Assembly (NCBI GenBank): GCA_963664705.1
Contig: OY761556.1
Location: 6,048,001-6,112,000 of the forward strand
Direction: 5' to 3'
Source of the DNA: Acidobacteriota bacterium
GTDB lineage: Bacteria; Acidobacteriota; UBA6911
DNA length: 64,000 nt
Under the pieces are notes generated by a model. It searched no databases. It was not told the DNA's origin and saw only the letters and a program-made list of their open reading frames with translations. Shown piece after piece: positions 45,946 through 50,295 of this stretch (the stretch's first letter is position 1; each line of letters opens with the position of its first letter). Made by a program: the position numbers and the translations under genes.

Positions 45946-47091
45946 TTAGATGAAAGAATCCATCAGGTCGGAAATGACCTTTTCAAACTGCCCGGGCCTT
46001 TCCCGTTCAATTCGCTGCCGAATCTGATCCACGTGAGCCCTCAATCCGCTGTTGTCTAGGTCGTCCAACGAATGGTAGAAGCTGCCGCGACGACCCAGAC
46101 GGAAGTTTTCCCGCTCGGATTGATCCAGCGCCAGGTAACGATCGATGGCGGCGAGCATTCCCGGCTTTGCTTCAGGGAAGACGCCATCCAGTTCCTCCAG
46201 AAGATTTAGGATGTGGTCGCTTGCGAAGTGGCTATGTATGCCTTCAAGGCTTTCTATGAGCAGGCGCTCTTCGAGGATGATCTCGTCATCGGTCATCAGT
46301 TCCAGCTCGCCGCTCAGCACTTTCTGATAAAGCGGCATGATTTGAAGCACCTTTAAGGTTCGGACCCGGATGAAGTCCGGATCGATCTGGTTGAGAACCT
46401 TTGCTGTTTCCAGCGCGTGCTCCCGCCACATCGTCCTTCCGCCCAGTCCGGGCATGATGTACTCCGATAGAGAAATGCCCGCTTCCTTGACTTTTCTTCC
46501 GGCATCCACAAGCTCGCCTGCGGTCACTCCCTTTTTTACGAGTGCAAGCAGTCTGTCATAGCCCGACTCAAGCCCTGTATGGATGCGCGAAAGGCCCGCA
46601 TCGCGAAGCTCTTTCATTTCCTCAAGGGTTTTGCGGGCAACGGTCCTGGCGCGCGTATAGGTGGTGATCCGCTCGATCGATGGAAATGTCCTTTTGAGGT
46701 AGGACAGCATTTCCACCAGGTCTTTGGTTTTTAGCGCCAGGTTGTTTGCATCCTGCAGGAAGACGTTTTTTGCCCCTCTGTGCAACCAGAGGATTACGCT
46801 TCGGTACCCTTCGGGAAGAATGTGAGGACGGTGCAGGAGCGAGCTGACCAGCGAGGAATTGACTTCTCCGCCAAATCCTTTATCCCAGGATATCGCCCGT
46901 ATCTCGGACGCCATAGCCTGAATGGTATCAATGTCCTTTTTGACTTCTTCAACGGTACGGGCGCTGAAGCGTTCTCCCTTGTAGATGTGGCAAAACTCAC
47001 AGTTATTCCAGGAGCAGTTTCTTGTAACTCTCAAAAGCAGGCTTTGAGCCTCGCTTGGTGGACGAATTGGGCCTTGTTCAATTTCATTCAT
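45946..47091 (-). CDS. Radical SAM protein (uncharacterised PIRPPSEA type)
   Basis: EQGPIRPPSEA.SLLLR.TRNCSWNNCEFC, FLQDAN, GLESG, PDFIR.RTL, SDH..NLL. Confidence 0.88.
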   Translation of the reverse strand: MNEIEQGPIRPPSEAQSLLLRVTRNCSWNNCEFCHIYKGERFSARTVEEVKKDIDTIQAMASEIRAISWDKGFGGEVNSSLVSSLLHRPHILPEGYRSVILWLHRGAKNVFLQDANNLALKTKDLVEMLSYLKRTFPSIERITTYTRARTVARKTLEEMKELRDAGLSRIHTGLESGYDRLLALVKKGVTAGELVDAGRKVKEAGISLSEYIMPGLGGRTMWREHALETAKVLNQIDPDFIRVRTLKVLQIMPLYQKVLSGELELMTDDEIILEERLLIESLEGIHSHFASDHILNLLEELDGVFPEAKPGMLAAIDRYLALDQSERENFRLGRRGSFYHSLDDLDNSGLRAHVDQIRQRIERERPGQFEKVISDLMDSFI

Positions 47092-47160
47092 AGTCTTGAA
47101 TTCTAGCAATGATTGGCCGTACTCGAAAAACTCATTTTGAGTAAACGCGTTGCATGCACT

Positions 47161-47298
47161 TCCTGGGAGGGCCGCCATTCGGGCCAAGCTGCAGGGTATT
47201 TGCAGAATTCCAGATTTCAGATTCCAAATTCCAGACCAGGACCAGGGAGTACTCACTGGGAGGGTCGCCGTCCCGGCTACCGCCGCATAACAATTGTT
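47161..47298 (+). repeat. Dispersed repeat, copy 2
   Basis: TGGGAGGGCCGCC.. unit, heptamer tract, then GGGAGTACTCACTGGGAGGGTCGCCGTCCCGGCTA..GCCGCATA. Confidence 0.8.
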
Positions 47299-47451
47299 CA
47301 CGCCCTGCCGACGCGAGTGAGGCGCCAGGTCCGGAGGGCCGAAAGCAAGTAGACATAATGGAGTGATCGGTCTCTAGCATGTAATATCGTGGGTTACAGC
47401 TGAAGTCGTGGTGACGAAGCTGCAGAGCCATAAAACATGAGGAGACCGATC

Positions 47452-48546
47452 ATGGCAGATTGTATCACTTGGGTAGGGATGGATGATTCAGCAAAAAAGA
47501 TAAACGTCGCAATTTTTCGCGGGCAGGAAAGTAACCCTCGAGAAGAACTTGTTGTATCAAACGACAGTACGGGGCTGGGTCGGTTAGCGAAAAAGCTAAG
47601 GGCATTTGAAGATGATGTACGGTGCGTCTACGAAGCGGGCGTTAATGGATACTATTTGCAGCGCTATTTGGCCAAACATGGGATTTCTTGTGAGGTTGCG
47701 GCCCCTTCGTTGACTCCGAGACGAGCGGGAAAAAAAGTAAAAACGGATAAGCTGGATGCGAAAGCCTTGGGCAAATTGTACCGAGCGGGAGAACTAACAT
47801 GTATTGTGATCCCGCAAAAAGAACAGGAAAGTCTGCGAGATCTGGTGCGTGCGCGAGAAGACGCATTGGAAGACCAGCAGCGAGCACGGCATCGATTAGC
47901 ACGGTTTCTGATGCGACGTGGATTGAAATATCCGCAGGGCAAGAACTGGTCGCTTGGGCACCTAAAGTGGATTAAGAGCCTTGTGTTTGAGGATGATGGG
48001 GATCAAACAGTACTGGAGGAATATCGACAGGCGCTTGAGCAACAGACGGAGCGGTTGAAAACATTCCAGGGAAAAATCGAGGAAGTTGCAAAACAGCCGA
48101 ACTATCAAAAGCGAGTCAGCTATTTGATGGCGCTAAAAGGCGTTCAGGTTCTGACGGCGATGACGATTATCGCAGAAGCGCTCGATTTAAGACGGTTCGT
48201 TGATGCGCCTTCGTTTATGGCCGCTATTGGGGTGGTGCCTTCGGAAAGCAGCTCAGGTGAACTTGAAAGACGGGGAAGGATAACCAAAACGGGAAACAGC
48301 CACCTACGTAGGGTGCTGATCGAAAGCGCCTGGCACTACCGTCATTCTTCAGTAGCTGGCAAAACTCTCAAGAAACGACGAGAGTGTTTGCCGGCAGAAG
48401 TTATCGAGATTGCACAACGTTGCGATAAGCGATTGAATCAAAAATTCCGACGCATGCTCAACCGAGGGAAAGAAAGACAAAAGATCGCGGTTGCGGTAAG
48501 TCGAGAATTGGCAGGATTTATCTGGGCTATCGGTCGTGTTGCATGA
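47452..48546 (+). CDS. IS110-family DEDD recombinase/transposase
   Basis: VGMD, YEAG, KTD..DA (DEDD); G.VPSE.SSG and G.ITK.GN..LR..L.ESAW; GAGGAG RBS. Confidence 0.95.
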   Translation: MADCITWVGMDDSAKKINVAIFRGQESNPREELVVSNDSTGLGRLAKKLRAFEDDVRCVYEAGVNGYYLQRYLAKHGISCEVAAPSLTPRRAGKKVKTDKLDAKALGKLYRAGELTCIVIPQKEQESLRDLVRAREDALEDQQRARHRLARFLMRRGLKYPQGKNWSLGHLKWIKSLVFEDDGDQTVLEEYRQALEQQTERLKTFQGKIEEVAKQPNYQKRVSYLMALKGVQVLTAMTIIAEALDLRRFVDAPSFMAAIGVVPSESSSGELERRGRITKTGNSHLRRVLIESAWHYRHSSVAGKTLKKRRECLPAEVIEIAQRCDKRLNQKFRRMLNRGKERQKIAVAVSRELAGFIWAIGRVA

Positions 48547-48618
48547 CATAAGGCACCAGCTCTTGCAGCTATTTTGTTCTTCAATGGATTAATAACGGAA
48601 ACATTCGGTTAGTGAACG

Positions 48619-48801
48619 GAACAGGAGATCGAGTTCCAGGCTTCGAAAGGAGAAACCTCGACCTGGCTATGTTGGTATGGGAAACCAGAATCCACGGAAG
48701 TAGAGTGAGGCCGCTCCCGATGAATCAGTTGTCATGCGTGCTTATCGACCCGCGAATATCAGATTGATTATCGTCGCTGTTGCCAACTCGATCCCCTGTT
48801 C
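48619..48801 (+). ncRNA. Predicted bridge/seekRNA of the IS1111-group element
   Basis: Closing stem 48619-48635/48785-48801 (16/17 paired) around two stem-loops with internal loops containing CCTGGCTA, AAGTAG and ATATCAG, which match the target and the element end. Confidence 0.8.
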
Positions 48802-49131
48802 TTTTTACTGGCTGATTTATTTATGAACCGAAGAAAACCAAAATGAACGAACAAGGAACGGATTGATTGTACTTGACCGATCACTCCATATCAGCCAGGG
48901 GTGAAGCGCAGCGAACCCCTGGATTGGATTAGACCAGTAACAAGCCCCAGAGGGGCGGCAGAAGGCGCCGATCCTTCACCCCTCCGGGACCTTCCGGGGC
49001 TGAGATGCATCCTATTCCCAGATCCCTCGGGCAAATGATATCCAGCATTAGGTGCCCTGCCGGCAAGGGGGCTAGCTGCTTCCGCAATGCTGATGCCGCC
49101 GGGACGCCGGAACTCCCCGTGGATAGCCGAC

Positions 49132-50295
49132 TTATTCAAAATGAATTCGAAGCTGAACGATTTCAGGACGGTTGCCGAGGCGCACGGGAGGACCCCATGT
49201 CCCGACTCCGCAGGAAACGTAGTACTGTGTATTCCCTCTTCTTTTGTATCCCCACGCCAGTTCGTATATGCGATTGACAATATAATTGATGGGCCACAGC
49301 TGGCCGTAATGGGTATGTCCCGAAATCTGCAGGTCGATCTTTGAATTCTCTGCCTCGGACAGCCCGAAGGGTTGGTGGTCCATCAGGATTACCGGGTAGT
49401 TTTTATCGACCGACTCCATCAGCTCGGCGAGATGTTTCCTCGGATTGCCTCCAAACGTTACGCTGGAACGATCCTCCCGACCAACGAGGAAAATGGAATC
49501 CGCGACCTGAACACTTCGATCCCTCAGCATGGTAATGCCATGCTCAGTAAGATACTCACAGGCTCGCTCGGCGCCGCCGATGTGTTCGTGATTTCCGGTT
49601 GCTCCAAAGACCCCGTATCGGGATCGGATGTTTCTCAAGGACTCTCCAAGATTCTGTCTTATTACGGGAGCGATGTCTTCGTCGACGATATCGCCGGGCA
49701 TCAGAACCACATCCGGGTTCAATTGGTTGATCTGTTCCACAATTTTGTCAAAGCGGGATCTGTCGACAATCGTGCCCAGGTGTACATCCGAAACGGCCAC
49801 AATGTTCAGATGGTCGAGGCGTGATGCCTTCCTCGGCATTGATAAATCCATGGCGACAATGCGCGGGAAAATGGCATTGATGTGTCCGATCAGCAGAAGG
49901 ATGCCGACGGCTCCGGTGACGCAGAGCATGGTGACGAGCTTTGCCTTCTGATAATGATCGGTGATGACCGCGGGATAGAAATGGAAAAAATGGTTGCCGA
50001 GGCGGACCAGGTCCAGCGCGACGACTGCCAGCAGAAAGTAGATGGTTGCCGCAATCCAGAATGATCCGATCCACAACAGAAGATCCGAGAGAAAAGCAGG
50101 AACGCGGTTTTCCAGGATGCGTCCGCCAATGTACGAAAACGCGACAATCCAGAAAGCAAGGATGTATGGGGTCCTGAGGCCGGAATCGGGAGGGATGGAC
50201 TGCAGTCCGCGGTTAAAAAAGTAATAGCTGATGAGTCCGGTGATGAGGGAAAAGACGGCAAAGAAAACTATCACGCGCATTGCGATTGTCTCCAT
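49132..50295 (-). CDS. Membrane-anchored metallophosphoesterase (YkuE-like)
   Basis: Four TM segments then SD.H.G, GD.VD, GNHE, HQP, SGHTH.GQ, G.G.WGPP.R. Confidence 0.92.
   Translation of the reverse strand: METIAMRVIVFFAVFSLITGLISYYFFNRGLQSIPPDSGLRTPYILAFWIVAFSYIGGRILENRVPAFLSDLLLWIGSFWIAATIYFLLAVVALDLVRLGNHFFHFYPAVITDHYQKAKLVTMLCVTGAVGILLLIGHINAIFPRIVAMDLSMPRKASRLDHLNIVAVSDVHLGTIVDRSRFDKIVEQINQLNPDVVLMPGDIVDEDIAPVIRQNLGESLRNIRSRYGVFGATGNHEHIGGAERACEYLTEHGITMLRDRSVQVADSIFLVGREDRSSVTFGGNPRKHLAELMESVDKNYPVILMDHQPFGLSEAENSKIDLQISGHTHYGQLWPINYIVNRIYELAWGYKRRGNTQYYVSCGVGTWGPPVRLGNRPEIVQLRIHFE

Follow-up and report, generated by a model that had tools for sequence, protein, structure and literature searches.

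The question raised by this locus is what the non-coding DNA behind an IS110-family recombinase gene encodes, and how it relates to the site in which the element lies. The locus belongs to a 64,000-nucleotide stretch of Acidobacteriota DNA, here called the window. A bridge RNA has been predicted in the right end of 93% of IS1111 elements (PMC11208160), and the original prediction read the region as a bispecific guide whose programmed target is a GTAG REP, with AG as the core. The answer given here draws on the anatomy of the element, the pattern of its insertions and the covariation of its guides with their targets. Very probably the region is the gene of a predicted bridge (seek) RNA, whose loops match the REP site and the joined ends of the element and which likely guides the DEDD recombinase at the AG core.

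The element and its recombinase

The element, of IS110 family and IS1111 architecture, occupies positions 47351..48892 (+) of the window and measures 1,542 bp when the AG core is counted once. Its left terminal extension, which is the left donor sequence, lies at 47353..47357 (+) and comes to 7 bp when the core is counted. It is followed by one arm of a perfect 15-bp subterminal inverted repeat (47358..47372, +). The other arm is at 48875..48889 (+), followed by a 3-bp extension and the second copy of the AG core (48890..48894, +). In the IS1111 group these repeats are usually 11–13 bp long, and extensions of 7 bp on the left and 3 bp on the right define the group (PMC11187229); the 15-bp repeat is inside the reported range of 7–17 bp. 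About 346 bp of non-coding DNA follow the stop codon and 101 bp precede the start, so that the long region is downstream of the gene. The element thus has the repeats, the extensions, the 3′ non-coding region and the order of target matches, described below, by which the architecture of IS1111 is set out in PMC11187229. A radical SAM gene (PF04055) at 45946-47301 (−) is divergent from the element, with the REP in the intergenic space.

The gene at 47452..48546 (+) begins with an ATG behind an AGGAG site, in a reading frame open from 47437, and encodes a DEDD recombinase of 364 amino acids. The protein matches PF01548 (N-terminal DEDD), PF02371 (C-terminal) and NF033542 over the cut-off. The original prediction called the recombinase intact; its catalytic residues D11, E61, D99, D102 and S268 are all present, and they are kept in each of the 11 full copies found by genome comparison, every one of 1,542 bp. 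These copies differ in 24 variable columns, just one of which falls in the 3′ non-coding region, in a single copy; the AG core and the orientation are identical in all 11. The sequences point to a recently spread and apparently intact RNA-guided recombinase. One copy, C1:4951995-4953101, has a stop at codon 175 and an unchanged guide RNA. Of a twelfth insertion a remnant is left (C1:4126129-4126250), in which some 90 bp from the left end run into the right half of a REP across a 3-base stretch common to both; it looks like a deletion product.

Over its full length the recombinase is 38% identical to that of ISSso6 and 36% identical to that of ISEc45, and in a tree of 24 rows the three form one clade with support of 100/100. 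Identity to ISKpn2, IS4321 and IS5708 is about 25% over partial alignments, and to ISEc11 31% over 138 amino acids. The protein was placed outside the core clade of these four elements; a joint clade with core IS1111 was neither supported nor rejected (p-AU 0.39) in the same 24 rows, from which IS1111 itself is absent. The similarity to the IS621/ISCro4 proteins is remote (E about 3e-6). By sequence, then, the protein belongs with ISSso6 and ISEc45 in one branch. To this branch ISCARN28 was assigned from published identities; its identity to each of ISSso6 and ISEc45 is 44%, and ISEc45 and ISCARN28 are themselves listed as IS1111 (PMC11187229 source data).

When the ends of the element are joined they create a predicted promoter consensus, TTGACC-17 bp-CATAAT. 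Its −10 box (47354-59) would be supplied by the left extension, and its −35 box (48873-78) is overlapped by the right subterminal repeat. A junction promoter of a similar kind has been described for ISEc11 (PMC11187229). A promoter scan gave 2 sites, compared with 1.6 in shuffled sequence, and none on the + strand ahead of the RNA. Joints that skip the element are present in contigs of runs X2, X3 and X5 and are read as empty REP paralogues rather than as signs of excision. The same contigs list no circle joint, the absence of which assembled contigs cannot show.

A predicted two-hairpin RNA and its target

Folding of 48600-48840 gave an outer stem with two hairpins inside (−81.4 kcal/mol, z = −3.99; none of 200 shuffles was equally stable). 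The stem had been proposed to pair 48619-35 with 48785-801, of which 16 of 17 pairs form, and the fold lengthens it to about 48605/48815. This stem (48605..48815, +) encloses both hairpins as a predicted long RNA form, with a T-run at 48799-806. Hairpin 1, the target-binding hairpin (48649..48717, +), and hairpin 2, the donor-binding hairpin (48718..48773, +), lie where the original prediction had placed them, as do all the sequences it named. The two hairpins are of the same build; in hairpin 2 many positions are invariant or nearly so.

The structure was examined further in relatives. Of 179 loci collected, 11 being the copies of this genome, 118 had both ends with the AG core pattern, and the 61 that did not were set aside; the 118 formed 46 clusters by non-coding sequence. 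A scaffold pattern, devised after a look guided by targets and then applied without them, found one match in each of 34 clusters. From these 34 RNAs a covariance model was built, which later recovered 11 of the 12 clusters that had no regular-expression scaffold. It matched 34 of 41 further loci, including, after the gene, ISSso6 with 75 bits and, weakly, ISEc45 with 25.5 bits. In all 34 elements the 5′ and 3′ flanks pair better with each other than with the median foreign partner (mean −44.8 kcal/mol for own and −25.1 for foreign flanks), which supports the outer stem. In the alignment of the 34 sequences 92.5% of cells are paired, compared with 29–45% in slid controls, and compensatory changes on both sides occur in 13 of 28 pairs. 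In the minimum-energy fold of the single sequence the hairpin-1 guides are partly paired to one another, and the open-loop form lies 2.7 kcal/mol higher; the open target loop therefore rests on the comparison with relatives.

A search of Rfam with 47000-49300 matched nothing at E values up to 5. Neither the element nor any of 15 relatives was found to have a second target loop. Some close relatives (L001, L108-L113, L100-L105) have much longer 3′ regions (480–630 bp), in which additional stable hairpins precede the guide RNA; an extra guide loop was not found in the members checked.

The left target guide, CCTGG with core CT (48662..48668, +), pairs with the top strand, AG-CCAGG. The right target guide, AAGT with core AG, pairs with the bottom strand and is followed by two predicted handshake bases, 48704-05 (48698..48705, + in all). 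The top-strand match (48662-68) lies 5′ of the bottom-strand match (48698-703), as in the IS1111 group. When the non-coding region was resampled 20,000 times with a Markov model, a single resample had the two matches in this order within a span of 70 nt.

One relative of the 34 was dropped for short flanks. In the remaining 33 the left guide agrees with its own target, counted outward, in 32, 32, 28, 29, 22, 8 and 8 relatives, and the right guide in 33, 31, 19, 17, 12, 14 and 8. Over the 5 + 4 guide positions, 243 of 297 match the own target, compared with 93.9 ± 9.1 after shuffling, and none of 20,000 shuffles was as high. With similar guides collapsed the figure is 214 of 261, and the own target wins or ties in 27 of 29. 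Ten further elements, ISSso6 among them, were held out; they had full flanks, 2 of the 12 having been dropped for short ones, and were re-anchored post hoc by at most 1 base on the core letters, blind to the target. They matched at 67 of 90 positions, compared with 33.6 ± 6.0 (none of 50,000 shuffles). One of them, L160, fits poorly, with its right flank matched at 2 of 5. The scaffold pattern was devised with sight of targets and the relatives are not independent of each other, and all these shuffle counts therefore overstate certainty.

The original prediction had proposed guides of eight bases. Both were located, CCTGGCTA at 48662-69 and GGAAGTAG at 48696-703. The parts CCTGG+CT and AAGT+AG do covary with their targets, but the outer positions proved to be scaffold or background: G48696 belongs to a helix pair that does not vary, and the base following the left core, an A in 29 of 34 sequences, is mostly scaffold. 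Matches beyond 5 positions on the left and 4 on the right are at or near background, from which the working target appears to be 11 nt long (5 + 2 + 4), shorter than the 8-mers would imply.

The target is a RAYT-associated GTAG REP, a head and palindrome present in many copies and flanking a Y1 gene. Its left half at the locus consists of AAGT and the AG core (47347..47352, +), with the GTAG head at 47349-52; its right half, the palindrome, follows directly after the core (48895..48922, +). Ten of the 11 copies of the element sit at one position of the REP, directly behind the GTAG head, with the same junction, and the eleventh (C1:2938673) is at a site without the palindrome. Insertion of other copies at unrelated sites had been named as grounds for refutation, and the prediction withstood this test. 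All 11 are at guide-matching sites, ten REP and one non-REP, with 4 or 5 of 5 positions matched by the left guide. At the non-REP site the left guide matches 5/5 and the right guide 1/4, and partial-match insertion has been reported for IS621 (10.64898/2026.08.31.748434). A 10-of-10 guide match once considered for this site was dropped, the extra positions being scaffold or background. The copy there (L088, C1:2938673-2940214) interrupts an open reading frame of about 100 codons on the opposite strand, the C-terminal half of which weakly resembles YoeB/ParE toxins (E 0.03–0.04, below the cut-off); its left flank was also found in run X5 of a second study.

The genome has 128 REP hairpins, 10 of them occupied, and 90 of the empty ones have a GTAG head; the exact 11-mer occurs in 18 empty REPs. 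CCGGG is the commoner REP variant, yet insertions prefer the guide-matching CCAGG: the ratio CCAGG:CCGGG is 9:1 in occupied and 33:56 in empty REPs (p = 0.0017). With a wider REP pattern, perfect 9/9 guide sites make up 6 of 10 occupied and 18 of 128 empty REPs (p = 0.002), REP sites not being independent draws in either comparison. The window itself contains, at about 7901 (−), a further GTAG REP that is empty and of the CCGGG variant.

In the RAYT arrangement a Y1 transposase gene is flanked by two inverted REPs (PMC2817692), and the sole PF01797 gene of this genome lies between two inverted GTAG REP copies. This gene (L180, C1:1439746-1440395), a RAYT-like Y1 transposase gene of about 148 amino acids whose flanking REPs are of the CCGGG variant, is likely the source of the target repeat family. 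Many copies of a relative in Dehalococcoidia genomes (L007-L023, L053, L055, L063) lie in near-identical repeated flanks, which suggests a multi-copy repeat or array as the target there.

Donor loop, alternatives and proposed mechanism

The donor half of the prediction fared unequally on its two sides. The right donor guide, ATATC with core AG (48756..48762, +), is present as ATATCAG and identical to 48888-94. The left donor guide (48728..48733, +) includes the predicted TGTC (48730-33), and just these 4 bp pair with the left end. Among the relatives the right guide tracks 5 of 7 variant ends exactly, and its agreement with the right end reaches 100 of 102 positions where shuffled pairings give 86.6. 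For the left guide and the left end the figure is 111 of 170 (shuffled 84.6); this guide is the weaker of the two, with position 4 matched in 13 of 34 and a poor match in several relatives. Both exceed every shuffle.

The handshake model predicts that bases in the target loop are complementary to the donor (PMC11208158). The target-loop handshake bases complement the donor at 52 of 68 positions, compared with 42.6 after shuffling, with 1 of 20,000 shuffles as high. The donor-loop handshake bases do not track the targets, agreeing at 15 of 68 positions where shuffling gives 13.8. In 23 of 34 elements the first of these bases could pair with the own donor; in IS621 such pairing at a handshake base lowered recombination (PMC11208158).

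Three other readings of these data were weighed. The matches might be incidental, pieces of a captured repeat or a terminator, with the protein alone choosing the REP. The T-run that ends the outer stem and the failure of the single-sequence fold to open the target loop would suit this reading, and yet the guides stand at fixed scaffold positions and change with unrelated targets across many lineages, and one insertion lies outside any REP with its left guide fully matched. Covariation appears to bring the incidental reading close to refutation already, and it is extremely improbable. A larger, though still small, probability attaches to a seekRNA for the target only, in which hairpin 1 alone guides, the protein reads the 15-bp repeats, and hairpin 2 is dispensable or aids excision or processing. 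A short RNA of 82 nt with the target matches was sufficient in ISEc11 (PMC11187229), and the 4-bp left donor guide and the donor-loop handshake bases that do not covary with targets are in line with this. Set against these points are a right donor guide that tracks 5 of 7 variant ends, donor guides that both beat all shuffles, and the many invariant or near-invariant positions of hairpin 2. The tracking of the ends together with the conservation of this hairpin indicates continued pairing with the ends.

The remaining reading accepts the pairing of the guides as required and adds the REP hairpin beside the core as a second gate, as reported for ISPpu10. Ten of 11 copies lie in hairpins, while the non-hairpin GTAGCCAGG sites, 27 in number and all empty, are unused; the side of the core on which the hairpin lies is the one reported for ISPpu10 (10.64898/2026.03.19.712850), and a hairpin is likewise there in 6 of the 8 relatives of at least 59% identity. 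One copy nevertheless sits at a site without a hairpin, and 23 of the 27 non-hairpin sites are inside long open reading frames, so that the pattern would follow equally well from selection against gene disruption. A hairpin is found in 5 of 30 more distant relatives, and a requirement for one in the branch as a whole was rejected on this count. For this element a structural gate is a tentative proposal, on balance doubtful.

The preferred reading, a bispecific guide, is supported by the 11 copies at guide-matching sites, by covariation of the guides with targets and donor ends and by the intact catalytic residues; the original claim of such a guide for the GTAG REP with an AG core holds on these grounds. 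By analogy with the family, which is the source here for expression of the RNA, its binding by the recombinase, the circle and the chemistry, the recombinase would begin by joining the two ends of the element at the AG core to form a circle. The joined-end promoter, a consensus seen in the sequence, would then drive one transcript across gene and RNA, from which a shorter RNA is likely cut out. As covariation suggests, hairpin 1 would pair with both strands of the 11-nt target (5 + 2 + 4) and hairpin 2 with the joined ends on either side of the circle junction. From the structures of IS621, a tetramer would use D11, E61, D99 and D102 with S268 to swap strands at the core, and the two handshake bases that follow the right target guide may pair with the donor and aid strand exchange. 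The outcome is seen in the genome: the insertions share one orientation, lack any extra duplication and mostly lie immediately after the GTAG head of a RAYT-associated REP.

Relation to known systems

Much of this is already known: the mechanism, the targeting of REPs (IS621, ISPa11, ISPpu9, ISPpu10) and, for this branch, a predicted bridge RNA, since ISCARN28 is one of six elements for which one is given (PMC11208160, Fig. 6d). The element is likely a new example of a known system of RNA-guided recombination. Within its branch, ISSso6 has the same predicted two-loop RNA after the gene, the same AG core and the same ATC extension; the element, new to this branch, differs in guide sequence and in its target, the GTAG REP, at the 36–38% identity to ISSso6 and ISEc45 noted above. 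A search of the literature, with partial coverage of subscription papers, found no bench test of this branch.

With the core IS1111 seekRNA elements ISEc11, ISKpn4, ISPst6 and ISPa11 the element shares subterminal repeats, the 7/3 extensions, an RNA after the gene, the order of the matches, top-strand 5′ of bottom-strand, and a predicted junction promoter; ISPa11 likewise targets REPs (PMC11187229). The core transposases have 330–350 amino acids compared with 364 here, and the element lies on a separate long branch. It differs from core IS1111, too, in a simple RNA of two internal loops with a covarying donor loop. IS621 and ISCro4 (IS622) have in common with it the tandem target and donor loops, a CT core (AG on the other strand), an 11-nt target, a REP target with a GTAG head, a DEDD recombinase with serine and a target-loop handshake to the donor, which in the element is predicted (PMC11208160; PMC11208158). 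Their RNA stands before the gene, whereas that of the element stands after it, and their target is read as 7+2+2 rather than 5+2+4. The element also departs from them in its long inverted repeats and in a donor-loop handshake that does not track targets.

ISPpu9 and ISPpu10 of Pseudomonas putida are IS110-family elements that target REPs as well (PMC12288879; 10.64898/2026.03.19.712850). ISPpu9 recombines at an AG dinucleotide and is of the IS110 group, without subterminal repeats (PMC12288879), and ISPpu10 has targets with an adjacent stem-loop (10.64898/2026.03.19.712850). Unlike in these systems, stand-alone RNA copies were not found here among the 150 scored of 1,029 genome candidates, and all 11 model hits lie within full elements.

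It is conceivable, though less likely than not, that the branch forms a third lineage of bridge recombinases, with IS1111-type ends, an IS621-like donor loop, a 5+2+4 reading and a one-sided handshake. In such a handshake the target loop would track the donor, and the donor loop would retain a base pairing with its own donor, an arrangement found inhibitory in IS621. Were this so, direction would be controlled differently, and a multi-copy element with the REP hairpin as a possible second gate would test the need for a donor loop in elements with IS1111-type ends. A screen of recombinases in human cells drew on the IS621-like clade (10.1101/2025.05.14.653916); the guide positions mapped here by natural variation may allow reprogramming in a tool screen without guesswork. 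The covariation of the donor loop bears on the choice between the bridge RNA model, with two loops, and the seekRNA model, with a short RNA for the target only, in elements with IS1111-type ends.
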